DNA of 64,000 bases, taken from positions 149,872-213,871 of the forward strand of contig JAQTST010000001.1 of assembly GCA_028711165.1 (NCBI GenBank), given 5' to 3'. Of this stretch, positions 14,137 through 50,856 are shown in pieces (within the stretch, counting starts at the first letter, position 1; each line of letters opens with the position of its first letter). The notes under the pieces were generated by a model. That model was not told the DNA's origin. It did no database searches and saw nothing but the letters and a program-made list of their open reading frames with translations. The position numbers and the translations under genes are program-made. Source of the stretch: Candidatus Nanoarchaeia archaeon. Its GTDB lineage: Archaea > Nanobdellota > Nanobdellia > Pacearchaeales > GW2011-AR1.

Positions 14137-15981
14137 ATGCTAAAAAGAGAGGGAAATCGCAGAGCTCAAGTTACAATTTTTATCATTATTGCAATAATTA
14201 TTGTTGCAGGAGTGGCAATTTTTTTGGCTGTCAGAGGAGGAATAAGCATTGTGCAGATTCCTGCAAACATCCAGCCGGTTTACAACACATTTTTGTCATG
14301 CCTGGAAGATAAAACAAAAACCGGAATTGATTTATTAGAAAGTCAGGCAGGCTACATTGAACTTCCTGAATTCGAACCTGGTTCTGTTTACATGCCTTTT
14401 TCATCGCAGTTAAATTTTTTGGGAAATCCAATTCCTTACTGGTATTATGTTTCTGCAAATAATCTGCAAAAAGAACAAATGCCTTCAGAACAGGATATGG
14501 AAAAATCTCTGGAGAGTTTTATCGACGACAGAATAAGAGAATGCGACTTTTCAAGTTATTATCAGGAAGGATTTGAAATTGTCCAGAAAACACCGACTGC
14601 AAATGTTGATATAAGAAGCAGCGACGTCAATGTCAGATTAAATATGAATATGGAAATTACAAAAGGGGAAGATACTGCTCTTGTAACCAGCCACGAGACA
14701 ACTGTCAAATCTAATCTTGGAGCTCTCTACAACTCGGCAAAAACTCTTTATCAGAAAGAACAGAAAGAATTATTTTTAGAAGATTACGCGATTGACAATG
14801 TAAGGTTATACGCTCCTGTCGACGGAGTTGAAATAAGCTGCAGTCCTAAAACCTGGAACACCAACGAAATTTTCAGCAATCTTCAGGATGCCATCGAGAC
14901 AAATACTCTTGCACTTACTACCACGACACCGACGACAAATGACGGAAGATATTTTTATGTCAGTGCAGGAATTGGCACAAATGCGAGATTTATCAATTCA
15001 AAAAGCTGGGCTTACAGCATTGAAGTTCTTCCGTCGCAGAACAGCTTGCTGATTGCAAATCCTGTCGGAAACCAGCAGGGACTTGGAATTTTAGGATTCT
15101 GTTATGTTCCTTATCATTTTGTTTACAATGTTAAATATCCTGTTTTAGTGCAGGTTTACAACGGAGATGAAATTTTCCAGTTTCCCGTCGCTGTTCTAGT
15201 TCAGGGAAACAAACCAAGAGAGCCATTAACAGCAAATGCAGAGACAATTACTCCTGAATTATGTCCATACAAAAACACCGAAGTGACTGTGAGAACTTAT
15301 GATACTGCACTTAATCCTATCAACTCTTTAGTTTCTTACGAATGCTTCAGTGAGAGCTGTGCTATCGGCAATACAGTTTCAGGAATCCTTACAGCAGATT
15401 TCCCGCAATGCAGCAACGGTTACATAACTGCAAGAGCTGACGGATATCAAGAAACAAGAACTTTATTCTCGACGATTCAGGAAGGAAGCGCTACAATCGT
15501 AATGAACAAACTTTATGATTTGAATGTCGCATTAAAATTAGGCGGGAATAATTATGACGGAAAAGCGTTCATTTATTTTGTCTCCGACGATAATTCAAAA
15601 ACAATTTCTTATCCTGAACAGAAAAAGGTTAAACTTTCCGAAGGAACTTATGATGTTTCAGTTTACATTTATCGTGATTCTTCATTACAGCTTCAGGAAA
15701 CAACTACTCAGGAATGCGTTGATGTTCCAAGTTCAGGAATCGGGGGAATCTTTGGAATCACAGAGAAAAATTGCTTTGATGTGAAGATTCCGTCGCAGTT
15801 AGTTACAAATGTTCTTGCGGGGGGAGGAAAGCAGGAATATAACGCAGTTGAAAGCCAGTTAAGCGGTTCGAATACTATCGAGATAAATGCACAGCAGTTC
15901 ACAACACCTACGACAATTGAACAGCTTCAGAATAATTACCTTTCATTTGACAATTCAGGATTGGACATTACATTAAGATGA
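14137..15981 (+). CDS. large secreted/membrane-anchored hypothetical protein (614 aa), partner of the giant ORF
   Basis: N-terminus KREGNRRAQVTIFIIIAIIIVAGVAIFLAV, which resembles a class III (pilin-like) signal/anchor. Stop overlaps the start of the 2340-aa ORF (ATGA at 15978-15981). TATA-like ATTTATATA about 25 nt upstream. Confidence 0.7.
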   Translation: MLKREGNRRAQVTIFIIIAIIIVAGVAIFLAVRGGISIVQIPANIQPVYNTFLSCLEDKTKTGIDLLESQAGYIELPEFEPGSVYMPFSSQLNFLGNPIPYWYYVSANNLQKEQMPSEQDMEKSLESFIDDRIRECDFSSYYQEGFEIVQKTPTANVDIRSSDVNVRLNMNMEITKGEDTALVTSHETTVKSNLGALYNSAKTLYQKEQKELFLEDYAIDNVRLYAPVDGVEISCSPKTWNTNEIFSNLQDAIETNTLALTTTTPTTNDGRYFYVSAGIGTNARFINSKSWAYSIEVLPSQNSLLIANPVGNQQGLGILGFCYVPYHFVYNVKYPVLVQVYNGDEIFQFPVAVLVQGNKPREPLTANAETITPELCPYKNTEVTVRTYDTALNPINSLVSYECFSESCAIGNTVSGILTADFPQCSNGYITARADGYQETRTLFSTIQEGSATIVMNKLYDLNVALKLGGNNYDGKAFIYFVSDDNSKTISYPEQKKVKLSEGTYDVSVYIYRDSSLQLQETTTQECVDVPSSGIGGIFGITEKNCFDVKIPSQLVTNVLAGGGKQEYNAVESQLSGSNTIEINAQQFTTPTTIEQLQNNYLSFDNSGLDITLR

Positions 15982-18900
15982 CAAGAAAAAAAATAATCTT
16001 CGGAATGTTTTTCGTATTTGTAATTTTATTTCTCCAGTTCATTTCTGCTGACATAATCTCGAATGTCCAGACTTCACAATTTAATCTCGACACAAAAAAA
16101 TCTCTCGACACTTCGCTTTGCCAGGAAGGAAAAGATTTCCTTGTGCAGATTTCTCCGTCGGGATGTGAACCTGCAGTTGTAAGAACTGATTTGCTTGAAG
16201 AAGAAGATGTTCAGGTGTACTGCAAGCTTGGAGCAACACAAATAAATCCTCTGATAGACGTCCAGACAATTGACAGCATTTCATTTTCAGGAACTTACCC
16301 GAAAGAAGTTTCTTCAATAGGATTTCATCCTGCAAAAGCAGCACTCGGTGTAAAGGGAGACTTGAATTCCCCTGTCCTGAATAATATCGGATATGTTGTA
16401 ATCAATTTAAAAAAACAGGCAAATGCTTCTGCAATTCCTGAATTCGTCGAGGGAAAACTGACAGCAAAAATAAAATACAATGTAAAAAGTGCTCTTGGAA
16501 TTGGGAATGCACAGATTTATGTTTCTGACTTGGACAATGCAGACTGGGAAGCAAGAAGATATCAATATAATTTCTGGAACGGAAAAGGAACTTTGAAATC
16601 CGACGGGATAGGAACTGACAATGCGCAGATTTCTGTCTATTCTAATGAAAAGAAAATTTCAAGTGTCAGCCTCAAGAAAGGAGAAACTTCGAGCATGATT
16701 TATCTTCCCGGACTTGAATGTCAGGCAGGAACAAAATTAAAATTGGACGGATTGGAGAGTCCCAACACGCGAGCAATAATAAGAGTAAACGCAGAAGTTG
16801 CTGAGATTGCCGAGGGAGAAAAATTCCTTGACAATAAATGTTCTGTGAAAAATCTTGAATACAGGGGGATTAATCAGCATGTTGATATAAGATGCATTGA
16901 AGACGGCAAGACAAGTGAATTTGGTTTGTCTATAAATCCTAAAATAACTTTAAAACTTGCAGGAAAAGATTTGGGTGTGATAACCAATATTCCCGGAGCT
17001 TATGAAGAAGCAACGAGAGATTACAGCGTCGGTGATTGGTTGTATGACACGACTTATCTTGGCAATCCCGGAAGTGTTTATCTCGCATACATCGGAACAG
17101 ACAGAGATTCAAAAAATGTTGATGATTTGTTTATCTATCTTACTTTCTCACTTTTGAAAAAAGAAAAGCTCAGCGAAGAGGAGATTAGCACTGCAAGTGC
17201 TCTTATTGGAGATTTAAAAGAAGCCGGACAAACTTCTACAGGATACATTGATATTACCAGCGATGCAATAAGCAGATTTGCAGGATTGCTAAACGGAATC
17301 GGGAGAGCAATTGAAAAAGGAGAATATTACTGGAGATTAAACTTTGGAGAAAATCATCAGGTTCCTGAAATTAGCGGGCCGACGATTTCAATAGTTAATT
17401 TAGCAGGAGCAACTGACGCTGAATTAACCGGAAATGCAAAGGAATATTATGACGGTGCAAAAGCAGATTATGAAACTATAAGGGAGAGCTACTCGTCGGA
17501 AACTTACACAAAAGACGAGACTTCAACTTTTGGCGAAGAGGCTTTTTACAACGAGATACTTTTAGCCTGGAATGCAAACCAGAAAAAATTTGCTTATGAT
17601 TTATGCCAGGAGTACATTCAGGCTTATCCTAATTCCAAGAAAGATTTGAGCTACTGCACTGATGCAATAAAACTTGCAAACCAGGATGCTCAGGAAGTTT
17701 ATGTAACAATCAACGGGGAAATAAAAACAATTTCCTTCGACGGAATCAACGAGCCGACTTTCGAGGATTTTGGTGCAACTGTGAGAATAAACGCTCCTGA
17801 CGGAACAGTAAGAAGTTTTGATTTGAAAAAAAATACAATTGTTTATCTCGACAAGAATCAGGAAATTTATGCTGTTCATCCTATAATCGGGGGCGTTGTT
17901 TATTTCAAATATTCCAACGGATGGAGCTGGTCTTATGACAAAGTAACCTGGGTGATTTCTCCTGATGCAAATTCTGCTACTCAGTTAATTAATCAGCTGA
18001 AAGGAAAAACTCTCGACGATGGGAAAACAACTCTGATAAATCAGGGGGCGGTAAAAGAGACTATGGTTATCAATGATTACCTTCAGCTGAATTCTCTCGA
18101 CGATAATTCTGCAACCATAAGGACCAATCTCAACGTTTATGGACTTTCAGAAACAATTGCAAAAGAATTTTCCGGGGGAATAATTACACTCCAGAAAGAT
18201 GTTCCTAAAGATTTGGGGACAGGATATGTCTTTACTTTGACTGATATAAATCTTAAGAAAGTTGCGAAAGTTTCTGTTTTGCCGAATATAAACAACGCAG
18301 GAACAACTGCTGATTTCAGTTTCAAAATTGGAATTGAAAAAAGGGCAATTAATCTTCCTCCTGAACAAGTCAGAAATTTAATCACGACGCTGAACAAGAC
18401 AATAAATGATTGGGAAGGAATTTCATCTACTCTCGGGGGTGTTACACAAGGACTGCAGACAGGATGCCTTGCAGCGGGAGCAGCACTTGTAGCAAAGAAT
18501 TTTTTATTCGGGGTTGGCGGAGAAGGAATTGCAAGACAAACAATAATGAGAGGAAGCAATGGCTGGACAGAAAGATGTGCACAACTTGTAGCGCAGGGAA
18601 CTTATAATTCGCAGGACCAGTGTTACCTTTCAAATGCTGACAAAATTGACAAGGATGTCGTCGCTGTTTCCGGAATTATTGAACAGCAGAATAGCAAGAT
18701 AAAACAAATTGAATCGGGGATAACTCAGGCACAATTTTTGACTGAGAGCATTGTAAACACAACTGCATTTATGGAAAAATACACTCCTCAGGTTAGAAGC
18801 TGTTTAGGAAATCAGAATTATGCAGACCCGAGCGGAAAGGGGACAGCAATCACTACTGACGACTTGAATGCAATCTCCTACGAGAACTGGAAAGTCAAGC

Positions 18901-21900
18901 AATATTTTAACAAGGAACAGCTGAGAGATATTGAATTATACTGCAATATTTTAAAATCACCGACGGCAAGTGCTGAATTAAAGCAAATTGCAAACCAGAG
19001 AATTTATTCTGAGCTGACTGATGTCAAAACAAATGTCGGGAATCTTGTTGAGATAGTAAATCTCGCCAGCCGTTTTGGAGTATCATCCAGCGATATAACT
19101 TTTATAGAAACCGGACAGAATGTCAGAAAGTTCAAATATGAAGGATTGACAAACGGGAACAGAATTCCTACTGAAAATTCAAATGCGCCAATTGCAATAA
19201 TTTCTGCTTCTGACGGCGGGAAATATATTTTACTGCTCGACGATTCTGCAGGAACACAGCAGCTTCCTGTTTTAGGCGCTTACAGCATTATCGACGGTTC
19301 GAAATATTCTGAAATTCCTTCGGAGCTGAAAAATATTTATTTCCAGAGATTCGACGCGACGACTTACCAGAACGAATACAAGAATGCCCAGCTGAGATAT
19401 TACGAGACTGAACCTTACAAAGGGCTTCCTGCAATTGTCCCTTTTGATTTAAAGAACGGCTGGTATGCAGCGACGAGACAGACACTTCCTACCGGGGGAA
19501 GCATTCAGCCTTACGACGCTTCTGCACGTCCAAATAGTTTTTACCTTTGCAACGTCGGAGAAAACGGGCTGGAAGAATTCCAGACTATCGGTGATGATAC
19601 CTGCGAGATGATTAATCTTGGAACAGGAATGTCTTACGACCAATTCCCTGGTTTAGATGAGAGAGATGCGAAGACTCAGATTGACAAGGCTGTGCAGGCA
19701 ATAACTCAGGCGTCTAAACTTTACAGAGCAGGACTCTCGGGGAAAGTTAATATTTTAGGAAACAGCGTCAGTGTTGGAAGTCCTGCTGCGGATATTCCGC
19801 AATTCCAGTGCCAGGATTTCATGTCTCCAAATGAATGTTTGGTATTGTTCAATTTATGCGACCCTGTGATTTGTCCGTCGAGCAGATGTGATTTGGGCGG
19901 CGCTTATCCTGTCAAAGATGTTGTGCAGACAGGAGTAATCGGAAGTTTGGTTTTGTGTCTGCCTAATGTTCAGGAAGGAATTATTTTCCCTGTATGCCTT
20001 ACAGGAGTAAAAGCAGGAATCGACGGATTTTTGTCAATAACAAAATCTTACAGAGATTGTCTTCAGGAAAGTCTGAGAACAGGAAAAGTTGTTGGAGTCT
20101 GCGACGAGATTTACAGTCTTTACATTTGCGATTTCTTCTGGAGACAGGCACTTCCTCTTACTGACATCGCAATTCCAAAAATCGTTGAGTTTTTATCAGG
20201 ACAAGGAACAAGAGGCGGAGGAGAATATGCAAGTGTTCAAAACTCATGGAACTCTGCAGAAAGTGCGATAAGTTTTTTCACTAATTATTACGGGGCAAAT
20301 GCCAAGGATGCATTTTTAGCGAGGACAACAGAAACTGTGAAGAGCGAAGTTTGCAAGTCATACACTTCGGCAGTTGTTCCTTCAGGAGCTGATTTCATAA
20401 ATCAGATAACAACTCCTGCTTCACCTGTTCAGTTTACTGCGAGATTTGACGAGATTCCTTTGACAACAGCGACGGTACCGCCAACATCACATTACAAAGT
20501 TTTCTATCACATTTTTGCAGGAAAAGATTCAGGAGCATATTATCAGGTTTATCTTAAAGGAACTGCCGGCAGTTCATATTATCAGGATGCTTCGCAGAAT
20601 TTAGCAATTGCTTCTGGCTACATCAGCGTCGGTGGTTATGCAACTGAAACAAAAGATTTGACAGCTGTTGCAGGATATAATCAGTTGTGCGTGAATGTCA
20701 ACGGGCAGGAAGAATGCGGATTCAAGGAAGTCTCGACGGACTTTGCGATTAATTATCTCAAGGATGAATATCTTGCAAGCCAGGCAACTGAGACAGACAT
20801 CACGACTGAGGCTGGGTGTATTTCGGGAAGCGCGAGTGTTTACAGCATTTTGACAAATCCTAATGTCCAGCAAGGTGCAGAGGAAACAATTAATCCTGAA
20901 ATTTACAACAGAGGAATTACAAGAATCTGCGCGACAGACAATCCTGGAATAGGAACAGATACTTCTCCTTATGTTGCGACGAAAATAACCGGCGGAATGA
21001 TAACTGGAAAAGTTACAGATACAGAAACTGACGGAAATATCCCTACAGACGACAGCACTCCAACACCTGAACCCACTCCAACCCCTACAGAAACAACAAA
21101 TGATGAAGAACCACCAACCACAATCGAGGAAGACAAAAAAATAATTGAGGAATTGACAAAAGAGCCAGGAGTAAAGAACGGGCCGAGGTGGGTTGCAGTT
21201 GGTTATTGTGATAATGAAAAAATAAAATGTTGGCTTGATACAGAAAGTGTCAAGGATGTAATTAAGACGACGACAATTGAAGGCGAGGCATTACAGGATG
21301 TCCAGAAAAATTATATGGATGTTCTGAGAAATGAGGGGAATTATCTCAGCGAGAAAGAGTTTTCATCTTCTGTCCAGGAAATAGAAAAGGAGAAAAATTC
21401 TGCTAAAAAAATAACTATCATTGACAACATTTTTGACAGAACATTCTGGAGCACTGAAAAAGTTCAGCTGATATTTTTGAGAGGAAATGCTTACATGGAA
21501 TTGCTTAAACTTTTAATCGGGACACAGCCAAAACCAGAAACAACGACGACAACTGCAAGCACAGAGCTTTCTAATATCACTGACGCAAGGCAGAGAGTTT
21601 TAGTTGCTGCTGAAAAATTAACCGGCGCGATTGTAACAATTCCGAGAAGCGGATTCCTTGTCTGCGGTGCTGCTGCTTTGAAAATTTATTCTTATGCACA
21701 GGTTTCATACAAATGCGTTTACGGAGATAAAGAAGCAAGTTATTTAGTATACCAACAATATTTCAACAAAGACAGTAAAGTAATAGTTAATGTCCCCGGC
21801 AAATTTTCTCCTTATGCCGGATGTCCTCTGAAACCAATATCCCAGAAATTTGACAACATCAAGCCAGGAGATTATCTTGTAAGAATCTGGGACAGCAAAT

Positions 21901-23000
21901 ATAATCACGGAGTTATTTTCCTTGGGTGGGAAGACAAGGGCAAAAGAATTGCAAGATTATTTGACTGGAATGGCGATTACTTGAAAGAAGGAGAGAAAGA
22001 TTCTCAAGGGAAGATATGCACAAGAGAAAACTTTTTCCGAGCTGATACCTGCACTGGCGGAGGAAATAATTACTGCACTTATAACGGAAATTATTTCTGC
22101 AAGACTTACTGGACTTACACAAGTGATTTAACCGACGCTGCCGGACAGCCAGTTTATATGGTTCATAGCCCTGACACTTCGGGGATAGACATTACAACTA
22201 CAGAAATTGGAAAAGATATTTCTCCTGCTCCTCCTACGGAATTTACAAGCGGATATTCTCCTGCACAACCCACAAAAACAACTGTCGGAGACAAAATTTA
22301 TTCTGAGGCTGCGAAACTTTTGGGAAGCAGTTATGTTTCTTCTGCTGAATTTGTAAGCCGTTCACTAATAAATGCAGGAGTCAGTTCTCTCGGCATTCGT
22401 TCATTTGAAGAATTGATTCATGGATTTGAAACTCCCGCAAATAATTTTATGGAAATTGATCCTGATTACATGAAGGCTGGAGATATAATTGTTCTTGGAA
22501 AAGAATGTCTGCCTGAAAATTCTATCGGCATTTTTGCTGACTGGGATTTGAGCACAAAACAAGCTGTATTTTACACTCAGGAAAAAGGACTTTTTGACGA
22601 CGGTAAAGTTGTTCAGAAAAGAGAATCTGTGTCAAACATTTTAACGCTTAATAATAATGTATATGTTTCGAGAGCTTACAGATATATTGGAAATTTAACT
22701 GCAGAAGAAAAATCTGCAATAATTCCTTCAAGGGCAACATGGATAATATTAAGTGCACTTAACAAAATTTCCCCTCCTTACTCCGGGGCAGGAAATCCCC
22801 TTACAGGAAATTACGACGAGAACAAGCAGTTTATTGATGAACTTATTATCGACGGGCTTTTGACAGAACAGGAATGCAAAGATGTCAGAGGCAATCAAAT
22901 CTTTGGAGCAAATATGGGACAGAAGGATATTAACTGGGTTAAGAATATCTTGGTAGGAAAACAATCAGGAATGCAGGCAGAAAGTATTGGTGCTGATTAA
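15978..23000 (+). CDS. giant secreted protein (2340 aa) with Cys-rich/hydrophobic core, Pro/Thr linker and two C-terminal papain-fold-like (NlpC/P60- or CHAP-like) modules
   Basis: Uninterrupted 7 kb ORF with a signal-like segment IIFGMFFVFVILFLQFISA. Cys-rich block FQCQDFMSPNECLVLFNLCDPVICPSSRCD... at about 19800-20200. PT linker at about 21040-21125. Module 1 (about 21575-21990) has FLVCGAAAL ... NHGVIFLGW. Module 2 (about 22283-22560) has SSAEFVSRSL ... GDIIVLG ... SIGIFAD. Confidence 0.85.
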   Translation: MTRKKIIFGMFFVFVILFLQFISADIISNVQTSQFNLDTKKSLDTSLCQEGKDFLVQISPSGCEPAVVRTDLLEEEDVQVYCKLGATQINPLIDVQTIDSISFSGTYPKEVSSIGFHPAKAALGVKGDLNSPVLNNIGYVVINLKKQANASAIPEFVEGKLTAKIKYNVKSALGIGNAQIYVSDLDNADWEARRYQYNFWNGKGTLKSDGIGTDNAQISVYSNEKKISSVSLKKGETSSMIYLPGLECQAGTKLKLDGLESPNTRAIIRVNAEVAEIAEGEKFLDNKCSVKNLEYRGINQHVDIRCIEDGKTSEFGLSINPKITLKLAGKDLGVITNIPGAYEEATRDYSVGDWLYDTTYLGNPGSVYLAYIGTDRDSKNVDDLFIYLTFSLLKKEKLSEEEISTASALIGDLKEAGQTSTGYIDITSDAISRFAGLLNGIGRAIEKGEYYWRLNFGENHQVPEISGPTISIVNLAGATDAELTGNAKEYYDGAKADYETIRESYSSETYTKDETSTFGEEAFYNEILLAWNANQKKFAYDLCQEYIQAYPNSKKDLSYCTDAIKLANQDAQEVYVTINGEIKTISFDGINEPTFEDFGATVRINAPDGTVRSFDLKKNTIVYLDKNQEIYAVHPIIGGVVYFKYSNGWSWSYDKVTWVISPDANSATQLINQLKGKTLDDGKTTLINQGAVKETMVINDYLQLNSLDDNSATIRTNLNVYGLSETIAKEFSGGIITLQKDVPKDLGTGYVFTLTDINLKKVAKVSVLPNINNAGTTADFSFKIGIEKRAINLPPEQVRNLITTLNKTINDWEGISSTLGGVTQGLQTGCLAAGAALVAKNFLFGVGGEGIARQTIMRGSNGWTERCAQLVAQGTYNSQDQCYLSNADKIDKDVVAVSGIIEQQNSKIKQIESGITQAQFLTESIVNTTAFMEKYTPQVRSCLGNQNYADPSGKGTAITTDDLNAISYENWKVKQYFNKEQLRDIELYCNILKSPTASAELKQIANQRIYSELTDVKTNVGNLVEIVNLASRFGVSSSDITFIETGQNVRKFKYEGLTNGNRIPTENSNAPIAIISASDGGKYILLLDDSAGTQQLPVLGAYSIIDGSKYSEIPSELKNIYFQRFDATTYQNEYKNAQLRYYETEPYKGLPAIVPFDLKNGWYAATRQTLPTGGSIQPYDASARPNSFYLCNVGENGLEEFQTIGDDTCEMINLGTGMSYDQFPGLDERDAKTQIDKAVQAITQASKLYRAGLSGKVNILGNSVSVGSPAADIPQFQCQDFMSPNECLVLFNLCDPVICPSSRCDLGGAYPVKDVVQTGVIGSLVLCLPNVQEGIIFPVCLTGVKAGIDGFLSITKSYRDCLQESLRTGKVVGVCDEIYSLYICDFFWRQALPLTDIAIPKIVEFLSGQGTRGGGEYASVQNSWNSAESAISFFTNYYGANAKDAFLARTTETVKSEVCKSYTSAVVPSGADFINQITTPASPVQFTARFDEIPLTTATVPPTSHYKVFYHIFAGKDSGAYYQVYLKGTAGSSYYQDASQNLAIASGYISVGGYATETKDLTAVAGYNQLCVNVNGQEECGFKEVSTDFAINYLKDEYLASQATETDITTEAGCISGSASVYSILTNPNVQQGAEETINPEIYNRGITRICATDNPGIGTDTSPYVATKITGGMITGKVTDTETDGNIPTDDSTPTPEPTPTPTETTNDEEPPTTIEEDKKIIEELTKEPGVKNGPRWVAVGYCDNEKIKCWLDTESVKDVIKTTTIEGEALQDVQKNYMDVLRNEGNYLSEKEFSSSVQEIEKEKNSAKKITIIDNIFDRTFWSTEKVQLIFLRGNAYMELLKLLIGTQPKPETTTTTASTELSNITDARQRVLVAAEKLTGAIVTIPRSGFLVCGAAALKIYSYAQVSYKCVYGDKEASYLVYQQYFNKDSKVIVNVPGKFSPYAGCPLKPISQKFDNIKPGDYLVRIWDSKYNHGVIFLGWEDKGKRIARLFDWNGDYLKEGEKDSQGKICTRENFFRADTCTGGGNNYCTYNGNYFCKTYWTYTSDLTDAAGQPVYMVHSPDTSGIDITTTEIGKDISPAPPTEFTSGYSPAQPTKTTVGDKIYSEAAKLLGSSYVSSAEFVSRSLINAGVSSLGIRSFEELIHGFETPANNFMEIDPDYMKAGDIIVLGKECLPENSIGIFADWDLSTKQAVFYTQEKGLFDDGKVVQKRESVSNILTLNNNVYVSRAYRYIGNLTAEEKSAIIPSRATWIILSALNKISPPYSGAGNPLTGNYDENKQFIDELIIDGLLTEQECKDVRGNQIFGANMGQKDINWVKNILVGKQSGMQAESIGAD

Positions 23001-23737
23001 TTTGCAGTAGAACTTCCTATCTCTTGAGTTTGCATTCTGTTTAGTTCATTAAAATCTTTAATTAATCTCGGACGGTAAATCTGATTCTCGTTGTAGATTG
23101 TTAAATTTCCGCAGGAGTTATCCATTCGGATTTTAGCCCCCCTCACAGGAGTCATGTAGAAAGGTAATTTTTCTTTTTCGTTTATTTTTTTATCTTCAAC
23201 CAATATGACGAAATATTCCTCATTCAAAATTTTCATTGTGGGAAGAGCAAAAATTGCATCTTCTTCTGTAGTTATTACTTTATAGCCCATATCATTTTCA
23301 CTTTCTCTCCTTCTTTTTAATTCTTCAAGGGAAGTCATATACGCCCTTGTTCCATAAATTCCACTATTCCTTAAAGTTATCCAATCTGCCCATTTATCTT
23401 TCTTGCCTGTCCCATCTATAACTAATTCAGGGAGATACATTTCTGTAGAATTTAATTTTATAGTTTTAGAATCTATATCAAGTTCTCTCTGAGTCTTGTC
23501 CCACGGATAAAACAGCATCGGGAGACTATTCGGTATTTGAGCTGTTTCCTGCAAATAATATATTTTGTCGTAAATAGAATGTTCTGCTAAATCAAAAGGA
23601 ACTTTAGTTTCATCTACCTTTGAATATTCCGTGTTATAAATGTGTCCTTCTGGGAAATTTCTTTCCGGGACAGTGGTGCATCCTAAACTAGAAATGGTTA
23701 ATGCTGCAGCGAGTATTTTTTTTGTTAAACTCATCAC
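22997..23737 (-). CDS. hypothetical lipoprotein
   Basis: Lipobox-like LTISSLGC after an N-terminal hydrophobic segment. Convergent 4-nt overlap with the giant ORF. Confidence 0.55.
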   Translation of the reverse strand: MMSLTKKILAAALTISSLGCTTVPERNFPEGHIYNTEYSKVDETKVPFDLAEHSIYDKIYYLQETAQIPNSLPMLFYPWDKTQRELDIDSKTIKLNSTEMYLPELVIDGTGKKDKWADWITLRNSGIYGTRAYMTSLEELKRRRESENDMGYKVITTEEDAIFALPTMKILNEEYFVILVEDKKINEKEKLPFYMTPVRGAKIRMDNSCGNLTIYNENQIYRPRLIKDFNELNRMQTQEIGSSTAN

Positions 23738-23786
23738 TTTCCATTAAGATAAGAATTTATAAATGTTTTTAGAAATGCGGAGTATA

Positions 23787-23865
23787 ACTCGCGACCTCGC
23801 TCATTTATCACTGATCCTCCCTTCGCGAAATCGCTCGGGATTTGCACCTCGGTTCAAATTAAGTT
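23787..23865 (-). mobile_element. family B miniature insert 3' of tRNA-Leu, flanked by a 14-bp duplication of the tRNA 3' end
   Basis: AAATGCGGAGTATA at 23773-23786 and 23866-23879 (exact). The insert, read in tRNA sense, is AACTTAATTTGAACCGAGGTGCAAATCCCGAGCGATTTCGCGAAGGGAGG...AATGAGCGAGGTCGCGAGT. It aligns with the inserts at 27928, 29199, 33443 and 50857. Confidence 0.6.
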
Positions 23866-23868
23866 AAA

Positions 23869-23952
23869 TGCGGAGTATAGGATTTGAACCTATGTAGGCA
23901 CTAAGCCATCAGCTCCTAAGGCTGACCCATTTGACCGCTCTGGCAACTCCGC
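23869..23952 (-). tRNA. tRNA-Leu(UAG)
   Basis: Acceptor GCGGAGT/ACTCCGC+A, anticodon arm TCAGC-CTTAGGA-GCTGA, long variable arm TGGCTTAGTGCCTAC, T arm ATAGG-TTCAAAT-CCTAT. Confidence 0.9.
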
Positions 23953-23953
23953 T

Positions 23954-24016
23954 TGTAAGACACCTTATCGGTTTCTTGACACTCAATTTCCCTTTGCAAT
24001 ACTGCTCAGGGCTGAT
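23954..24016 (-). repeat. family C leader module, copy C1 (between promoter and tRNA-Leu)
   Basis: TGTAAGACACCTTATCGGTTTCTTGACACTCAATTTCCCTTTGCAATACTGCTCAGGGCTGAT is nearly identical to 26582-26643. Similarity continues into the TATA region. Confidence 0.75.
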
Positions 24017-24031
24017 TCTTTCAAATAACCT

Positions 24032-24047
24032 GAATATAAAAAGTTTT
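24032..24047 (-). promoter_or_regulatory. BRE/TATA-like promoter for the C1 leader and tRNA-Leu
   Basis: Minus-strand AAAACTTTTTATATTC lies about 85 nt upstream of the tRNA 5' end and immediately after the stop of the upstream gene. Confidence 0.4.
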
Positions 24048-24054
24048 AGAATTA

Positions 24055-24615
24055 TTAAATTCCGAAATCAACCTGCTGATACAATTCAAAATAACCTTTC
24101 GAAAACAAAACGAAATCACTGGCTACTCTTTTAACTGTTGTTTTTCCAAACACCATCGACTCTTTAATATATTCTTCATCCTGTTTCATTTTGATGATTT
24201 CTTCAGAAGTAGTTCTAATCTCGATATCTTTCTCAAATGTCTCTCCTTTCTTTATTATAATTTCCCCTTTTTTTATCTCGACAAAATACGGATTCTCGTC
24301 GATAAATACCTGTATCTTTGGTGTTGTTCGGGTGTAAGGAATTTCGTGCAGGTTATATAATTTTAAAAGAATCGCCATCTGTCTTACAATCTCTTCCTGC
24401 GAGTCTGAAAGGTTTGCCTCATTGACAATTTCAAATTCTGTTTCATTTCCCACTAAAGCAGATTCTTTTATCTCTGCTGTTTCTGCCTGATATTCTTCTG
24501 TATAATCCAGCCCGTTAAGTGAAAGATAAATGAAAGATGCAACCAAACCAAATGCAACCAGACTAAACATAAATAACATTATTGCAGGAACGTTCAATTC
24601 TCTTTTTTCTCTCAT
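24055..24615 (-). CDS. hypothetical membrane-anchored protein, tandem paralog 1
   Basis: N-terminal TM helix. Shares blocks with 24654-25151 (HE(I/V)P(Y/F)...TPKIQ, IIIKKGE/VIIHDGE, DI(E/I)IRTT..EI(I/M)KM, DFVLFSKGY). Confidence 0.55.
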   Translation of the reverse strand: MREKRELNVPAIMLFMFSLVAFGLVASFIYLSLNGLDYTEEYQAETAEIKESALVGNETEFEIVNEANLSDSQEEIVRQMAILLKLYNLHEIPYTRTTPKIQVFIDENPYFVEIKKGEIIIKKGETFEKDIEIRTTSEEIIKMKQDEEYIKESMVFGKTTVKRVASDFVLFSKGYFELYQQVDFGI

Positions 24616-24653: not shown

Positions 24654-25151
24654 TCATCCCGATGCGAGCATTTTTTCAAAATCAGGATAGCCTTTCGAGA
24701 ACAAAACGAAATCTTCTCCAACTTCTTCAATTTCAGTTCTTCCAGATAAAAAAGATTCTTCTGCATAATCATTGTTCTCAACCATTTTCATAATTTCATC
24801 CCGCGTTGTTCTGATTATTATGTCTTCTTTATCGCTTTCTCCGTCGTGGATTATCACATCTCCTTTCACAATTTCTATGTAATATGCATTTACAAAATAA
24901 ATATCCTCTGTGATGTATAACTGTATCTTCGGTGTTTTGTCAGCAAAAGGAACTTCATGAATATCCTGCAACTGCAGTCCGTTAATCAGTGCTTTTATTG
25001 TTTCCATCTGTGCATGTTCGCTGTAAATCCCTGTCTGTTCAGTTCCTTTGAAAGTTGAGTAAACATAGAATAATGCCAATACAAATACAATCCCTTCAAA
25101 AACATAAAGCAATATCTTTGGAATATCCAGCTCTTTTTTCTCTTTTTCCAT
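24654..25151 (-). CDS. hypothetical membrane-anchored protein, tandem paralog 2
   Basis: Same architecture and shared blocks as 24055-24615. Confidence 0.55.
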   Translation of the reverse strand: MEKEKKELDIPKILLYVFEGIVFVLALFYVYSTFKGTEQTGIYSEHAQMETIKALINGLQLQDIHEVPFADKTPKIQLYITEDIYFVNAYYIEIVKGDVIIHDGESDKEDIIIRTTRDEIMKMVENNDYAEESFLSGRTEIEEVGEDFVLFSKGYPDFEKMLASG

Positions 25152-26581: not shown

Positions 26582-26643
26582 TGTAAGACACCTATCGGTT
26601 TCTTGACACTCAACTTCCCTTTACAATACTGCTCAGGGCTGAT
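26582..26643 (-). repeat. family C leader module, copy C2 (5' of rps8e)
   Basis: TGTAAGACACCTATCGGTTTCTTGACACTCAACTTCCCTTTACAATACTGCTCAGGGCTGAT. Differs from C1 by a few substitutions and a 1-nt indel in a hairpin loop. Confidence 0.75.
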
Positions 26644-26654
26644 ACTCAATAATA

Positions 26655-26667
26655 CCTATATACTTCA
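26655..26667 (-). promoter_or_regulatory. TATA-like element upstream of the C2 leader and rps8e
   Basis: Minus-strand GAAGTATATAGGT in the position equivalent to the tRNA-Leu promoter. Confidence 0.3.
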
Positions 26668-27022: not shown

Positions 27023-27916
27023 ATGATTAAAATAACTTTTCTGGGGACTTCTGATGCTATTCCGAGCGCGGAAAGAAATCATACTTCTATTTTATTGAAT
27101 TACAAAGATGAGAATATCCTCGTCGATTGCGGGGAAGGGACGCAGAGACAATTCAGAAAGGCGAAATTAAATCCGAACAAAATTACGAGAATATTAATCA
27201 CACACTGGCACGGGGACCATGTCCTCGGGATTCCTGGGATTTTGCAGACATTAAGTTTCAGCGAATACAAAAAAACGCTTTACATTTACGGGCCAAAAGG
27301 AACAAAAGAATTCATGAGAAATCTTCTTAACACTTTCGTGTTCCATAAAAATTTTAAAATTGACGTTGAAGAAGTAGACGGCAAATTTTTTGAGACAAAT
27401 GATTTTTATCTTGAGTCTGAAAATATGAGCCATGGAATTCCATGCAATGCTTACACTTTTGTTAAAAAAGGAAATCTGCGAATTGACAAAAAGAAACTTG
27501 CGAAGATAAAAATTCACGGACCGATTTTGAAAAAACTGAAAGAAGGAAAAGACATTGTTTACGACGGGAAAAAATATTTGGCTAAGAATTTAACGTACAA
27601 AGAAATTGGGAAAAAAGTTTCTTTTGTATTCGATACCTCGTTTAATGACCGGATTGTTCCATTTGTGAAAGATTCTGATTTGCTTGTCTGCGAGTCGACT
27701 TTTGGCGTGGAACTTGAAGACAAGGCAGATGAGTTTAAGCATTTGACTTCGAAACAAACTGCAGAAATTGCGAAGAAGTCTAAATCCAAAAAACTTGTTC
27801 TTACTCACATCAGCCAGAGATACAACAAAAACCCCAAGAAAATTTTAGACGCTGCGAAGAAGGTTTTCAAGAATTCTGTTTTGGTTAAGGATTTGGACGA
27901 GATTGAAATTAAGTAA
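27023..27916 (+). CDS. rnz: ribonuclease Z (tRNA 3' endonuclease)
   Basis: Metallo-beta-lactamase motif ITHWHGDH; KITFLGTS N-terminus. Its stop codon lies inside the 22-bp direct repeat at 27906-27927. Confidence 0.9.
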   Translation: MIKITFLGTSDAIPSAERNHTSILLNYKDENILVDCGEGTQRQFRKAKLNPNKITRILITHWHGDHVLGIPGILQTLSFSEYKKTLYIYGPKGTKEFMRNLLNTFVFHKNFKIDVEEVDGKFFETNDFYLESENMSHGIPCNAYTFVKKGNLRIDKKKLAKIKIHGPILKKLKEGKDIVYDGKKYLAKNLTYKEIGKKVSFVFDTSFNDRIVPFVKDSDLLVCESTFGVELEDKADEFKHLTSKQTAEIAKKSKSKKLVLTHISQRYNKNPKKILDAAKKVFKNSVLVKDLDEIEIK

Positions 27917-27927
27917 CGCCCCGGACA

Positions 27928-28005
27928 ACTCGAGCCCTCACTCGTTGCTTTAAATTTTTTCTCGCACTCGTGAAAACTCTCTGGATTTGCACCTCGGTTC
28001 AAATC
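27928..28005 (-). mobile_element. family B miniature insert between rnz and tRNA-Arg(UCU), flanked by a 22-bp duplication
   Basis: AAATTAAGTAACGCCCCGGACA at 27906-27927 and 28006-28027 (exact, 100 bp apart). The insert in tRNA sense is GATTTGAACCGAGGTGCAAATCCAGAGAGTTTTCACGAGTGCGAG...AACGAGTGAGGGCTCGAGT. Confidence 0.6.
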
Positions 28006-28016
28006 AAATTAAGTAA

Positions 28017-28091
28017 CGCCCCGGACAGGATTTGAACCTGCGACCCTTAGCTTAGAAGGCTAATGCTCTATCCAGGCTGAGCTACCAGGGC
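28017..28091 (-). tRNA. tRNA-Arg(UCU)
   Basis: Acceptor GCCCTGG/CCGGGGC+G, D arm GCTC-AGCCTGGATA-GAGC, anticodon arm TTAGC-CTTCTAA-GCTAA, T arm GCAGG-TTCAAAT-CCTGT. Confidence 0.9.
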
Positions 28092-28144
28092 ATACTATTA
28101 ATTTGTTTGAGAACCTTTAAAAGTTTTGCATTCTATAAACTCGC

Positions 28145-29102: not shown

Positions 29103-29197
29103 GCGCGGGTGGCACAGCGGCTACTGCGTCTCCCTGCAGATTATAAATTAAATAATCGGAAAGGAGATTTTCACGGGTTCGAGTCCCGTCCCGCGCT
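29103..29197 (+). tRNA. tRNA-Cys(GCA) with a 22-nt intron at 37/38
   Basis: Acceptor GCGCGGG/CCCGCGC+T. Anticodon stem TCTCC...GGAGA with loop CTGCAG|A. Intron about 29140-29161 (ATTATAAATTAAATAATCGGAA). T arm ACGGG-TTCGAGT-CCCGT. Confidence 0.85.
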
Positions 29198-29198
29198 T

Positions 29199-29288
29199 AT
29201 TTTATAAAAGGACGAGAACCCTGGGTTCGACGAGCGATTTCACAAGTGCCGGAAAAATTTTGAATGCAACGAGTGGGGTCGGGAGCTT
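29199..29288 (+). mobile_element. family B miniature insert 3' of tRNA-Cys, flanked by a 15-bp duplication
   Basis: TCCCGTCCCGCGCTT at 29184-29198 and 29289-29303 (exact). The insert contains GAACCCTGGGTTCGACGAGCGATTTCACAAGTGCCGG...AACGAGTGGGGTCGGGAGCTT and is colinear with the other B copies in tRNA sense. Confidence 0.6.
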
Positions 29289-29347
29289 TCCCGTCCCGCG
29301 CTTTACTCTGTAAAAATATTTATAAATTGTAGTGCCTAAGTTATGTA

Positions 29348-33341: not shown

Positions 33342-33442
33342 ATGGCTCTGGTCCTCGCTTCGCTGCGGGCGAGCCATCTCAATCCTTCAATGGCTCTGGG
33401 CTAAAATTTAGGAAAAATTTTGCCACATAGCCTATGGCTCTG
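33342..33442 (-). repeat. three extra copies of the tRNA-Met 3' terminal nonamer, each preceded (tRNA sense) by a 5-bp hairpin
   Basis: ATGGCTCTG at 33342-33350, 33390-33398 and 33434-33442, plus 33543-33551 in the tRNA itself. Hairpins in tRNA sense are CTCGC-(10 nt)-GCGAG, GGCTA-(24 nt)-TAGCC and GGGAG-GTCAGCA-CTCCC. Confidence 0.7.
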
Positions 33443-33542
33443 GGGAGTGCTGACCTCCCTAACTCGCGACCTCCCTCATTCAACACTGACCCTACTTTCG
33501 TGAAATCGCTCGCCTCTGCCTACATCAAAGCTTGTTTAATTT
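33443..33542 (-). mobile_element. family B miniature insert 3' of tRNA-Met/Ile(CAU)
   Basis: Between nonamer copies at 33434-33442 and 33543-33551. Contains CGAGCGATTTCACGAAAGTAGGGTCAGTG...AATGAGGGAGGTCGCGAGTT (tRNA sense), colinear with the Leu copy. Confidence 0.6.
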
Positions 33543-33543
33543 A

Positions 33544-50855: not shown

Positions 50856-50856
50856 T

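Follow-up and report, generated by a model that had tools for sequence, protein, structure and literature searches.

Within the window, i.e. the whole stretch of 64,000 nucleotides that was analysed, an intact tRNA-Leu(UAG) gene on the minus strand is accompanied by a second copy of its own 3' end. As first reported, the 14-mer AAATGCGGAGTATA was found exactly twice, at 23773-23786 and 23866-23879, with 0 occurrences expected in shuffles. The features of this locus are the following:

23869-23952, minus strand: tRNA-Leu(UAG), intact and intron-less (ARAGORN; Rfam tRNA, 58.8 bits)
23866-23879, minus strand: repeat copy 1, TATACTCCGCATTT in tRNA sense (exact repeat)
23787-23865, minus strand: 79-nt insert, cassette E1a (insert similarity; absence in sister loci)
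23838-23858, minus strand: T-loop-like leader, or hairpin 1, TTTGAACCGAGGTGCAAATCC (identical copy at 27983-28003)
23788-23837, minus strand: hairpin hp2 of the insert (covariance model R1, 53.9 bits, E 1e-12)
23773-23786, minus strand: repeat copy 2, the target duplication (exact repeat; sister-locus comparison)

The tRNA is 100% identical to that of the sister-species loci L085 and L088. Repeat copy 1 begins 3 nt before the end of the T stem and runs through the acceptor 3' strand and the discriminator to TTT; the initial annotation had recognised it as the tail of this tRNA, and both ARAGORN and Rfam agreed. Read in tRNA sense, the insert consists of the spacer AACTTAA (23859-23865), the T-loop-like leader, hp2 and a single T, and its G+C content is 48% vs 35% in the window, in line with the GC-rich character described before. 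The leader forms hairpin 1 by pairing of GAACC with GGTGC and ends at its 3' side with the T-loop motif CAAATCC. The layout of hp2 is CGAG-CGATTTCGC-GA...GA-GCGAGGTCG-CGAG, with two tandem G.A motifs and a U.G run. Repeat copy 2 is followed by the promoter and the start of ORF 22997-23737.

Of the window's seven tRNA genes, five are followed, 68-99 nt downstream and on the same strand, by 10-22 nt that repeat their 3' end exactly, and no tail copy was found downstream of the other two, tRNA-Thr and tRNA-Val. Besides tRNA-Leu, the loci concerned are:

27906-28092, minus strand: tRNA-Arg(UCU) locus (exact repeats; covariance model), with the tRNA at 28017-28092, 22-nt repeats at 28006-28027 and 27906-27927, a 78-nt insert at 27928-28005 and hp2 at 27929-27982
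29103-29303, plus strand: tRNA-Cys locus (exact repeats; covariance model), with the tRNA at 29103-29197 including a 22-nt intron, 15-nt repeats at 29184-29198 and 29289-29303, the insert at 29199-29288 and hp2 at 29231-29285
33343-33615, minus strand: tRNA-Met/Ile(CAU) locus (exact repeats; covariance model), with the tRNA at 33544-33615 and hp2 at 33463-33512
50715-50943, plus strand: tRNA-Arg(UCG) locus (exact repeats; Rfam tRNA), with the tRNA at 50715-50855 including an intron of ~70 nt, 19-nt repeats at 50838-50856 and 50925-50943 and a 68-nt insert of family E2 at 50857-50924

At the Met locus the motif CAGAGCCA occurs four times (33544-51, 33435-42, 33391-98 and 33343-50), and these copies set apart the hp2 cassette, a cassette Y (33399-33434) and a cassette X (33351-33390). 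The repeat lengths of 14, 15, 19 and 22 nt given in the initial annotation stood, but the 9 nt assigned to Met had to be changed to 10 nt, to which two more 8-nt copies are added in a small array of four copies in total. Over all loci, in the window and in relatives, the repeats range from 8 to 26 nt (10, 14, 15, 19 and 22 nt in the window); they start at tRNA positions ~49-67 and end 1-11 nt past the discriminator.

The ~54-nt hairpin hp2 is common to four of the inserts (Leu, Arg-UCU, Cys and Met), and a T-loop-like motif lies upstream of it in three of them. The initial annotation had named similarity no better than that of shuffles as the outcome that would speak against a family; four pairs of inserts exceeded dinucleotide shuffles with z-scores from 5.5 to 19 (Leu-ArgUCU 15, Leu-Met 19, ArgUCU-Cys 13.5 and Met-Cys 5.5). 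However, the family of five that it proposed holds for Leu, Arg-UCU, Cys and Met but not for Arg-UCG, whose insert showed no significant similarity with the other four (z <= 1.5) and represents a second family, E2, homologous to the insert behind tRNA-Ile in L071 (z 18). This cassette lies behind different tRNAs in different genomes, with a local repeat each time. Likewise, the block TTTGAACCGAGGTGCAAATCC, described as shared among the inserts, is present in Leu and Arg-UCU and in no other insert. Since the leader is identical at these two loci despite their different T stems, it travels with the cassette. The Leu cassette starts with AACTTAATTTGA, which at the Arg-UCU locus consists of native flank plus cassette start. 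When the 10 nt located 5' of hp2 were compared with tRNA T loops, they fitted the one of the host tRNA better than those of other tRNAs (permutation P about 0.002). The description of the element as tRNA-derived remained unproven, the likeness being limited to the T-loop-like leader.

Alignment of 33 copies of hp2 revealed 15 base pairs with 92% of the cells paired, whereas slid controls gave 28-48%, and compensatory changes affected 5 pairs. Doubly changed cells numbered 53 vs 20.7 in shuffles, and the covariation score was 0.304 vs 0.146, values reached in 0 of 500 shuffles in both cases, as expected for a conserved secondary structure. One U.G pair is invariant (32/32) and a second is present in 30 of the 32. 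The orientation is also constant, as hp2 lies in the sense of the host transcript in all the tRNA-linked copies examined but one and in about 6 of 6 copies in large ORFs. hp2 is a strand-specific, selected hairpin that spreads to non-tRNA sites too.

The MFE z-scores of the inserts were ordinary (0.15 to -1.5). Rfam searches of the window, the inserts and 16 related loci, at the gathering threshold and at E <= 1, returned tRNAs only, by which a known RNA family was rejected; in addition, no C/D or H/ACA boxes were present in the hp2 alignment, which discards these sRNA classes. A classical K-turn was rejected by inspection, the G.A motifs of hp2 being symmetric CGAG/CGAG loops without the 3-nt bulge. 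A tRNA-like minihelix formed by insert and repeat was discarded as well, given that a 5'-acceptor-like strand, and a weak one, exists at Met only and that the MFE z-scores are ordinary.

hp2 is a dispersed repeat restricted to Pace-, Woese- and Nanoarchaeota MAGs. A pattern scan of genome contigs gave 28 true matches, all of them in DPANN MAGs and with up to 12 per genome, and covariance model R1 identified none in the syntenic loci of L092 and L094. The hp2 cassettes constitute a previously undescribed repeat family. The specificity for tRNA 3' ends initially attributed to it could not be maintained, since the hp2 core lies also in frame inside ORFs and adjacent to start or stop codons and, in one case, forms an intron in a tRNA anticodon loop. 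The last case, in L055, is an anticodon-loop insertion with a BHB-like fold (3-nt bulge and CUCU/GGAG helix) and the only copy with the features of an archaeal BHB intron. In the window, an ORF contains hp2 as follows:

42408-42518, minus strand: two nested hp2 copies in ORF 42195-42878, in frame (covariance model R1)

The second of these copies (42421-42473) sits in the 3' arm of the first. The orthologues have no copy in L097 and L098 and one copy of 57 nt in L096; one site of this ORF is therefore found with 0, 1 or 2 copies. The length of the copies in ORFs is a multiple of 3 and they are read in different frames; therefore, they are simply tolerated there. A peptide-coding module was rejected, as the reading frame changes from one ORF copy to the other and is different again in other contexts. 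The idea of a '3' transduction' of Met-locus flank into the ORF copy was withdrawn, the common tail being the 3' arm of the interrupted first hp2. Insertions of hp2 only show a repeat of just 2-7 nt, which in the ORF is at most 2-5 nt and ambiguous, and as a consequence the long duplication is not a property of hp2 itself. No target motif common to the left flanks (5' of hp2) was found.

Comparison of syntenic loci in sister species revealed the polymorphic and empty sites that the initial annotation had proposed to look for. At the Leu site, L094 is syntenic and lacks the insert and one repeat copy; L092 also lacks the insert, but its downstream flank has diverged. L085/L088 were rejected as an empty site because the tRNA is inverted there, and the clean comparison is that with L094. 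In L088/L090, L092 and L100 the Arg-UCU site is empty, and the end of the tRNase Z gene there adjoins the tRNA directly. Both L094 and L099 lack the insert and the second repeat at this tRNA and carry instead ~20 nt and a longer unrelated spacer, respectively; in L094 the tRNase Z end sequence found in the Arg-UCU repeat is single-copy native flank. No intermediate state was seen in sister species at Leu or Arg-UCU. These comparisons demonstrate an insertion/deletion polymorphism with exact repeat borders, in which the repeat is target sequence. Since sister species lack the cassette at exact borders, it is dispensable as far as the tRNA is concerned and is probably an insertion, any function for the host being putative. 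Nevertheless, the empty sites are equally explained by precise repeat-mediated deletions and, therefore, gain and loss are not polarised.

Four states were observed at tRNA-Cys across species: empty (L092 and L094), with the hp2 cassette (the window and, as an orthologous insert, L088/L090) and with two other cassettes (L099 and L100). Between the window and L090, the stems, leader and repeat of the Cys cassette are kept, the loop and spacer have diverged, and the repeat co-varies with two acceptor-stem changes, which suggests selection or gene conversion rather than neutral junk. An extra 4.6-kb segment beside this cassette in L088/L090 was considered and set aside; it contains two large ORFs and no recombinase domain. 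The Met locus of L090 has cassettes Y and X without the hp2 cassette, and the second copy at the Met locus of the window keeps a different T arm, which is that of the functional L090 tRNA; this copy is a fossil of an earlier target. Decay of the second copy at several loci affects its T-stem part, the acceptor part being exact. The newest cassette is the nearest to the tRNA (window vs L090), and the outermost copy in L029 is decayed. In relatives, the same tRNA flanks are taken up by other short cassettes, unrelated to these, and each of them comes with a 3'-end copy of its own. In this clade, small arrays build up at tRNA 3' flanks by accretion of several cassette families and, as unrelated cassettes show the same duplication, this belongs to the site or the process and not to the hp2 element.

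The proposal that the repeats are target duplications was borne out, the repeat always being local tRNA sequence. That of Arg-UCU extends over 11 nt at the end of the tRNase Z ORF, which is convergent (stop codon 27914-27916); as no incoming element could have brought this sequence along, the repeat is a target duplication and not an element-borne att core. Of the 57 window ORFs with 110 aa or more, 50 were searched with Pfam; as had been anticipated, this detected no integrase, transposase or Cas1, nor any reverse transcriptase (RT). No Y1 transposase (RAYT/TnpA) was seen within the 64-kb window, which is part of a 447-kb contig, and no integrase beside the cassettes examined. By inspection, the cassettes have no terminal inverted repeats (TIRs), as their ends (5' TTGAWTTGAACC... 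and 3' ...CGAGT) are not reverse complements, and their only inverted repeats are the internal hairpins. This and the repeat lengths, between 8 and 26 nt, are at odds with classical transposases, and the fixed-length target-site duplication of a classical MITE was not observed. A virus or plasmid origin was rejected: the scan of IMG/VR gave one hp2 match, due to chance, in a GC-rich phage contig, and no transposase, integrase, Cas1 or RT was found with hp2 there.

The explanation that we favour, with a probability of roughly 0.55, is that the Leu 79-bp insert is a copy of a short, non-autonomous mobile cassette family that lands at tRNA 3' ends and duplicates its target. The cassette would be made up of the T-loop-like leader (5'-TTGAWTTGAACC...) and the ~54-nt structured hairpin hp2, and would be copied into the DNA just beyond the tRNA-Leu 3' end. 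The target segment, from the T-loop/T-stem border to 1-11 nt past the discriminator, would be copied again, and the outcome would be an intact tRNA, then the cassette and then a second copy of the tRNA tail. Folding of hp2 may bring the leader beside the cassette 3' end, and the leader could guide the event to the T loop of the tRNA gene, either through homology- or microhomology-guided copy-choice (template switching) or with some enzyme supplied in trans. Such leader-guided copying would explain the start of the repeat right after the T loop, its variable length and the co-copied donor flank. A bolder extension, which we put forward only tentatively and consider unlikely, is that the tRNA 3' end in this DPANN clade is a dedicated landing pad where a duplication-making process stacks structured cassettes into arrays, the newest by the tRNA, and that hp2 also lands in the anticodon loop and is spliced out. 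Candidate stacking processes would be RNA-guided or primed via the tail copy, Cas1-like, or based on hairpin-bridged template switching.

Functional trailer RNAs, integrase relics and T-arm introns are less likely than mobile cassettes. A functional RNA module, in which the cassette would be transcribed together with the tRNA or right behind it as a small-RNA gene or structured 3' trailer, seems to us a rather doubtful alternative, and the same doubt applies to its component proposals that hp2 binds a protein, e.g. an L7Ae-type G.A-motif binder, and that the acceptor copy is a processing signal or a partner of the tRNA 5' acceptor strand. Such a module would account for the RNA-type conservation of hp2 (invariant U.G, compensatory changes and two CGAG/CGAG tandem G.A motifs), for its nearly constant sense orientation, for the Cys stems, leader and repeat kept in two species with a repeat that tracks the acceptor stem, and for the second copies with decayed T-stem and exact acceptor. 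A precedent exists in Nanoarchaeum equitans, where tRNA and sRNA were reported to form dicistronic genes and C/D box sRNA genes were proposed to be mobile (PMC3491384). However, the cassette is absent at the same tRNAs in close relatives with identical tRNAs, and T-runs or terminator-like hairpins lie between tRNA and cassette. In addition, no complementary 5' acceptor-like strand is found within the cassettes, the weak one at Met excepted, the Met second copy did not track the T arm of its tRNA, and the unremarkable MFE z-scores, the Rfam result and the ORF copies merely tolerated in various frames also argue against a module. Quite improbable, in our opinion, is the explanation by scars of tyrosine-integrase viruses or plasmids in tRNA genes, with the repeats as attL/attR and the 80 bp as a remnant or a trans-mobilised mini-element. 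Integrases that target tRNAs, and tandem accretion, are classically recognised by a block of identity that reaches from the T loop or T stem slightly beyond the 3' end and by tandem arrays split by this block, both of which are found here; the surroundings of tRNA-Leu are, moreover, rearranged or inverted between species. This explanation would also agree with the model in which tRNA fragments and introns come from tRNA-targeted integration (PMC3293823). Nevertheless, the supposed element measures just 33-170 bp in all ~15 cases, with the same borders at different tRNAs and genomes, one cassette has different, locus-specific repeats, and host tRNase Z ORF sequence lies inside the Arg-UCU repeat, so that the decayed integrating elements suggested by the initial annotation fit poorly. 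Neither an integrase, in the window or beside the cassettes examined, nor a repeat partner at kb distance was seen, and no viral contig of IMG/VR contains hp2.

We give similarly low odds to a local duplication with secondary insertion of hp2, or to hp2 being a non-canonical T-arm intron with the second copy as the true 3' exon. It is true that, minus hp2, the downstream piece at Leu, Arg-UCU and Cys reads as T-loop motif, T-stem 3' and acceptor 3' strands, and that at Met as anticodon-stem 3' strand, V loop, T arm and acceptor; that hp2 of L055 is a genuine anticodon-loop intron with a BHB-like fold; and that repeats without hp2 exist. However, the leader is identical at Leu and Arg-UCU despite their different T stems, and sister species show no intermediate at these two loci. 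A T-arm intron or a split-tRNA 3' half was rejected because no bulge-helix-bulge could be drawn, on inspection, at the hp2 borders of the window copies, the upstream tRNA is complete and followed by T-runs, and the EndA of this genome is a single-unit enzyme of 172 aa, the size of the alpha4 type. In the account of EndA types given in PMC5829648, alpha4 enzymes are limited to canonical sites. A casposase, a Cas1-like or another staggered-cut enzyme encoded elsewhere in the genome, with a duplication as in that of CRISPR repeats, we hold to be highly improbable. Casposons are known to target tRNA 3' ends with duplications of 14-15 bp, the repeats of Leu (14 nt) and Cys (15 nt) are within this range, and the repeat-cassette arrays grow at their tRNA-proximal end. 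Only two of the five window repeats are of 14-15 nt, though, in a general range of 8-26 nt, no terminal inverted repeats exist, Cas1 was not found in the window and hp2-only insertions occur without such duplications; the casposase-like origin raised in the initial annotation thus has no positive evidence.

If the cassettes are mobile, as we favour, several known systems offer a comparison. RPE and REP are short, hairpin-forming, dispersed, lineage-restricted and non-coding repeats. The cassettes share these traits with RPE, REP/BIME and MITE-like repeats (50-150 nt), as well as the in-frame insertion in ORFs, the location within or beside RNA genes, the co-transcription with the host and a copy number that varies among relatives. 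Unlike them, they lack terminal inverted repeats; their hairpin hp2 is strand-specific and conserves U.G pairs and tandem G.A motifs, tRNA 3' flanks are strongly preferred with a long and variable tRNA-tail duplication, the hosts are DPANN archaea, and the window revealed no partner of the RAYT or transposase kind. REP/RAYT and IS200/IS605-derived palindromic elements are strand-specific imperfect hairpins with a conserved flanking tetranucleotide and no target duplication. Measured against these, the picture is mixed: hp2 is strand-specific, CGAG-bounded and almost free of duplication when alone, but it has no left-flank motif and its tRNA-linked copies have long duplications. With tRNA-targeting integrative elements and islands, the cassettes have in common a repeat that runs from the T loop/T stem over the tRNA 3' end and slightly beyond, the intact upstream tRNA, the units piled up between the same repeat and the empty sites in sister genomes. 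They differ from these in units of 33-170 bp vs kilobases, in one cassette family with many repeats, in the lack of an element-borne attP core, with neighbouring host ORF sequence in one repeat, and in neighbouring ORFs without integrase or recombinase domains. Casposons and CRISPR repeat duplication resemble the cassettes in the insertion by tRNA 3' ends, the 14-15 bp duplication and the growth polarised to the 'leader' side, but repeats of 8-26 nt, the lack of TIRs, Cas1/PolB not being seen and conserved cassette families instead of captured spacers set them apart. Dictyostelium TRE3/TRE5 and yeast Ty3 are autonomous, RT-encoding eukaryotic retroelements targeted to tRNA genes. By analogy only, they show position-specific insertion by tRNA genes, variable-length target duplications and an occasional co-copied flank; unlike them, the DPANN cassettes have no known RT. 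Mobile introns and sRNA genes, together with the tRNA disruption model (PMC3293823), also bear comparison: the 'transposition' of archaeal BHB introns (Thermoproteales introns) likewise places one structured sequence in different tRNA genes and positions, including the anticodon loop in L055, and the C/D box sRNAs of Nanoarchaeum equitans (PMC3491384) are small structured units directly 3' of tRNAs in Nanoarchaeota-related lineages. However, most hp2 copies are outside the mature tRNA and flanked by target duplications, the window copies have no C/D or H/ACA boxes and no BHB, and the ORF copies are translated.

DPANN archaea have tiny, streamlined genomes in which few mobile elements have been recognised. 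The cassettes of ~50-100 nt described here form a family with gains and losses between sister species; they tag tRNA genes with duplicates of the tails of these genes, enter proteins in frame and, in one genome, occupy as hp2 a tRNA intron position. For the origin of archaeal tRNA introns, 'intron transposition' is one of the proposals in the literature. Another ascribes them and the tRNA gene fragments to the integration of mobile elements (PMC3293823). Solving the copying mechanism would make this origin testable, and with it the growth of arrays beside a fixed 'leader' without a known integrase and the role of tRNA genes as template-switching hot spots. If hp2 did land in the anticodon loop and is spliced out there, L055 would be a present-day case in which a mobile element gives rise to an archaeal tRNA intron. 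On the practical side, the partial tRNA copies and ORF inserts that come from the cassettes can mislead the annotation of MAGs. Another ORF of the window, 1450-2253, contains a weak, divergent hp2-like hairpin on its sense strand (1983-2053, minus strand; R1 20.7 bits, E 0.004).

The 14-mer AAATGCGGAGTATA was found in two exact copies in the window, at 23773-23786 and 23866-23879, while none was expected by chance. An intact tRNA-Leu(UAG) gene (23869-23952, minus strand) shares its 3' end with the second copy, and the exact duplication around a 79-nt insert described in the initial annotation was thus confirmed at its coordinates. In tRNA sense the repeat is TATACTCCGCATTT, running from the last three T-stem bases through the acceptor 3' strand and discriminator to TTT, and the insert has a G+C content of 48%, compared to 35% in the window. 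The same tail-copy layout is present behind five of the seven tRNA genes of the window; for tRNA-Thr and tRNA-Val no copy of the 3' tail was detected downstream. That the window is archaeal follows from its genes for TFB, tRNase Z and a tRNA splicing endonuclease.

Tail repeats behind the other four tRNA genes
tRNA-Arg-UCU: 22 nt
tRNA-Cys: 15 nt
tRNA-Met/Ile-CAU: 10 nt, plus two more copies of 8 nt
tRNA-Arg-UCG: 19 nt

Elements of the Leu insert, in order and in tRNA sense
AACTTAA
23838-23858: T-loop-like leader TTTGAACCGAGGTGCAAATCC, with an identical copy behind Arg-UCU
23788-23837: hp2, the conserved hairpin
one T, followed by the repeat

The five inserts had been proposed to form a single family, which holds for those of Leu, Arg-UCU, Cys and Met. 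These are clearly related when compared with dinucleotide shuffles (z = 5.5-19), so that a similarity no better than that of shuffled sequences, the outcome that would have spoken against a family, was not what was found. The Arg-UCG insert is not clearly related to the other four (z ≤ 1.5); it has a homologue following tRNA-Ile in another MAG (z = 18), with which it defines a second family, E2. Several cassette families use the same tRNA sites. Short cassettes of about 48 nt with the motif AAAATTTTCC (M/Y/Z family) are also tandemly amplified between tRNA-tail copies (L032:6460-6620; L061:3130-3440): in L032 three identical ones follow tRNA-Met, and in L061 an hp2 cassette is flanked by two copies of a 70-nt block.

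The hp2 hairpin consists of CGAG, a 9-10-bp stem, GA, a 3-4-bp stem, an A/T-rich loop and the complementary arms ending in CGAG, and each internal loop is a symmetric tandem G.A motif of the form CGAG/CGAG. In an alignment of 33 copies, five from the window and 28 from other genomes, 92% of cells were paired, against 28-48% in slid controls. Compensatory changes were identified at five pairs (e.g., GCGA/TCGC vs GAGT/GCTC, CAC/GTG vs CGC/GCG), and doubly changed cells numbered 53 vs 20.7 in shuffles, with none of 500 shuffles reaching 53; the search pattern fixed some columns, and the covarying positions were unconstrained (N) or outside it. A U.G pair is invariant at one position, and at another it occurs in 30 of 32 copies. 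The pairing, the compensatory changes and the slid controls demonstrate a strand-specific hairpin under selection on the tRNA-sense strand, either as RNA or as single-stranded DNA. Rfam gave no family match for hp2 or the inserts, even at E ≤ 1.

The distribution of hp2 was studied by scanning a degenerate pattern over one genome per species. This yielded 82 stretches, of which about 55 were scattered single bacterial matches, in line with what chance would give. True matches numbered 28, none of them outside MAGs of Pacearchaeota, Woesearchaeota or 'Nanoarchaeota', with at most 12 per genome, and a scan of IMG/VR gave only one chance match. At many loci hp2 lies between a tRNA and a downstream copy of the tail of this tRNA. 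In one Pacearchaeota tRNA (L055:6099-6240; VGKQ01000007.1) it lies in the anticodon loop, where it accounts for most of an intron of 67-70 nt; the anticodon stem is adjoined by a 3-nt bulge and by a BHB-like CUCU/GGAG helix, which the intron tail supplies. That tail is a partial repeat of the anticodon loop, and the tRNA is Glu-CUC according to ARAGORN or Gln-CUG if the splice site is 37/38. Copies within ORFs or at ORF ends are on the sense strand. In a further context, hp2 is bounded by short direct repeats such as GGGTGGG. ORF 42195-42878 (-) of the window contains two nested in-frame copies, the second (54 nt) sitting in the 3' arm of the first, while its orthologues in L096, L097 and L098 have either no hp2 (GCAGAA|CCAATT) or one copy of 57 nt. 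In these hp2-only insertions the ambiguous repeat is at most 2-5 nt. Since ORF copies are read in different frames, they are tolerated rather than selected as peptides. The product is a conserved 175-205-aa protein with the motif EPIFIRIDKFEEG and no Pfam match, to which the hp2 insertions add 19 or 37 residues. In addition, AAGGTCGCGAGTT at 50697-50709 (-), situated downstream of a TATA-like box and upstream of the first tRNA-Arg(UCG) nucleotide, matches the hp2 3' arm on the opposite strand.

The tRNA-Leu 3' end, searched as an exact 22-mer, and homology to the GlyRS next to it led to syntenic loci in about six related species (80-88% identity).

Occupancy of tRNA 3' sites in the window and in syntenic loci (L-numbers) of related MAGs
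Leu(UAG), hp2 cassette: window; L089 (same 14-nt repeat and junctions, different hp2 subtype)
Leu(UAG), other cassette: none
Leu(UAG), no cassette: L094 (clean, gene order TFB / tRNA-Leu / ORF245 as in the window); L092 (diverged flank); L088/L090 and L087/L099 (tRNA inverted)
Arg(UCU), hp2 cassette: window only; other cassette: none
Arg(UCU), no cassette: L088/L090, L092, L094, L099, L100
Cys, hp2 cassette: window and L088/L090 (orthologous)
Cys, other cassette: L099 (48 nt), L100 (45 nt), each with its own 8-11-nt tail copy
Cys, no cassette: L092, L094
Met, hp2 cassette: window, together with the short cassettes Y and X
Met, other cassette: L090 (Y and X only), L099 (one Y-like cassette)
Met, no cassette: L092, L100

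Where flanks could be aligned (Leu and Cys in L094; Arg-UCU in L088/L090 and L092), the insert and one repeat copy are missing, and R1, the hp2 covariance model, had no match anywhere in the L092 and L094 syntenic loci. This shows that the cassettes are dispensable and that their presence varies from species to species, and the empty sites for which the initial annotation had asked do exist. The Arg(UCU) tRNA directly abuts the tRNase Z gene end in L088/L090, L092 and L100; the site has about 20 nt in L094 and a longer unrelated spacer in L099, both lacking the cassette and the second repeat copy. The tRNA-Leu neighbourhood (22997-24615) is rearranged between species (L088, L087/L099, L089, L094), ORF 24055-24615 being missing there in relatives and ORFs 24654-25151 and 22997-23737 in some. 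A 4.6-kb segment between GlyRS and the tRNA-Cys cassette (L088:1717-6358; also L090, L091), not present in the window, contains two large ORFs (891 and 599 aa) without significant Pfam domains. The 2340-aa ORF at 15978-23000 (+), without Pfam domain, keeps its position in all syntenic relatives, with lengths of 2170-2860 aa.

The Arg-UCU repeat comprises 11 nt of tRNA and 11 nt of the last codons and stop (27914-27916) of the convergent tRNase Z ORF, and this ORF-end flank is single-copy in L094. As an incoming element could not carry the end of that ORF, the repeat is a duplicated target, as had been suggested, and insertion or deletion at tRNA 3' ends involves target duplication. At the Met locus, the second copy has a T arm (GGGAGGTCAGCACTCCC) unlike that of the functional tRNA of the window and equal to that of the functional tRNA-Met in L090, and it precedes the same Y and X cassettes as there; it is the fossil of an earlier target. 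Arrays seem to grow at the tRNA side, because the hp2 cassette of this locus is closer to the tRNA than Y and X and the outermost tail copy of the L029 array has a mismatch. The common leader and different hp2 subtypes of the Leu cassettes of the window and L089 suggest that hp2 is exchanged between copies. Two acceptor-stem pairs of tRNA-Cys differ between the window and L090, each downstream copy matching its own tRNA, and in these cassettes the leader and hp2 stems are conserved and the loop and spacer diverged. This pattern counts against a purely neutral view and needs gene conversion, re-insertion or selection.

The cassettes are real and polymorphic, and their copying mechanism is possibly unusual. 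A mobile, non-autonomous cassette with target duplication is the reading we favour, with a probability of about 0.55, any specific copying chemistry being much less probable. Repeats always end 1-11 nt past the discriminator and have a variable start just after the T loop; the 10 nt 5' of hp2 are closer to the T loop of the host tRNA than to those of others (P about 0.002, with some non-independence); and the Leu cassette begins with AACTTAATTTGA, which is native flank plus cassette start at the Arg-UCU locus, so that donor flank can be co-copied. Of the 57 ORFs in the window that reach 110 aa, 50 were analysed and gave no recombinase domain, in agreement with the initial annotation, which had recognised no integrase or transposase. 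Taken together, a copy process guided by homology or microhomology would fit better than a classical transposase. As one possibility, a nascent strand ending in the leader, the folded hp2 and T would re-anneal on the T loop of the tRNA gene, after which the tRNA tail would be re-copied; alternatively, an enzyme might be supplied in trans.

That the cassettes are functional trailers or small RNAs is unlikely: RNA-like conservation, sense orientation and tRNA-Cys co-variation would agree with it, but the cassettes are missing in sister species with identical tRNAs, terminator-like sequences lie between tRNA and cassette, and insert folding energies are ordinary. Scars of integrases are still less probable, since the repeats are locus-specific, one of them includes host ORF sequence, the size is tiny with constant borders and no integrase was found in the window, although the identity-block position and array layout are as such scars would leave them. 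We consider equally doubtful a local duplication with secondary hp2 insertion, or a T-arm intron. Downstream pieces are tRNA-like after hp2 removal and L055 has a true intron; however, different tRNAs have the leader in common, a BHB motif cannot be drawn, and the EndA, with 172 aa, has the size of the alpha4 type, which is restricted to canonical introns. Casposase-like insertion is very improbable given the variable repeat length and the lack of TIRs, and of Cas1 in the window.

In function the cassettes resemble RPE, REP and MITE-like hairpin repeats, and in siting they are similar to casposons or tRNA-targeting integrative elements. In concept there are links to the mobile small-RNA genes reported in Nanoarchaeum (PMC3491384) and to mobile elements as a reported source of tRNA fragments and introns (PMC3293823). 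By the tests that define each of these families they seem to belong to none, and a full-text literature search gave no description of such elements in DPANN.

Other features were observed near tRNA genes. An element of about 65 nt, ATCAGCCCTGAGCAGTATTGCAAAGGGAAATTGAGTGTCAAGAAACCGATAAGGTGTCTTACA, is present twice in the window, at 23953-24019 (-) and about 26590-26660 (-), and also in L050 and L068. One copy has its own TATA box and the other is fused directly 5' of tRNA-Leu; the element ends in ACA, its 3' part also comes after hp2 in two other genomes, and it possibly encodes a small RNA. Species differ in the tRNA-Cys intron (22 nt in the window, 29103-29197; absent in L088/L090; 39-41 nt in L094 and L099), and the acceptor stem varies (GCGCGGG vs GCGGAGG). 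The tRNA-Arg(UCG) gene (50715-50855, +), misread by ARAGORN as SeC(tca), has an intron of about 70 nt with internal repeats GAAAGAAACTACA, and its orthologue in L067 lacks both intron and 3' cassette. For tRNA-Met/Ile(CAU) (33544-33615 in the window; L090, L029, L092, L032) there are two alleles with T loops TTAAATT and GTCAGCA, both unusual and neither the canonical TTCRA, and in some species an 88-nt intron. Finally, many tRNAs of related MAGs (3' flanks in L003, L040, L071, L024) are followed, before the cassette, by a small anticodon-arm-like hairpin (7-nt loop TTGNAAA) and a T-run.
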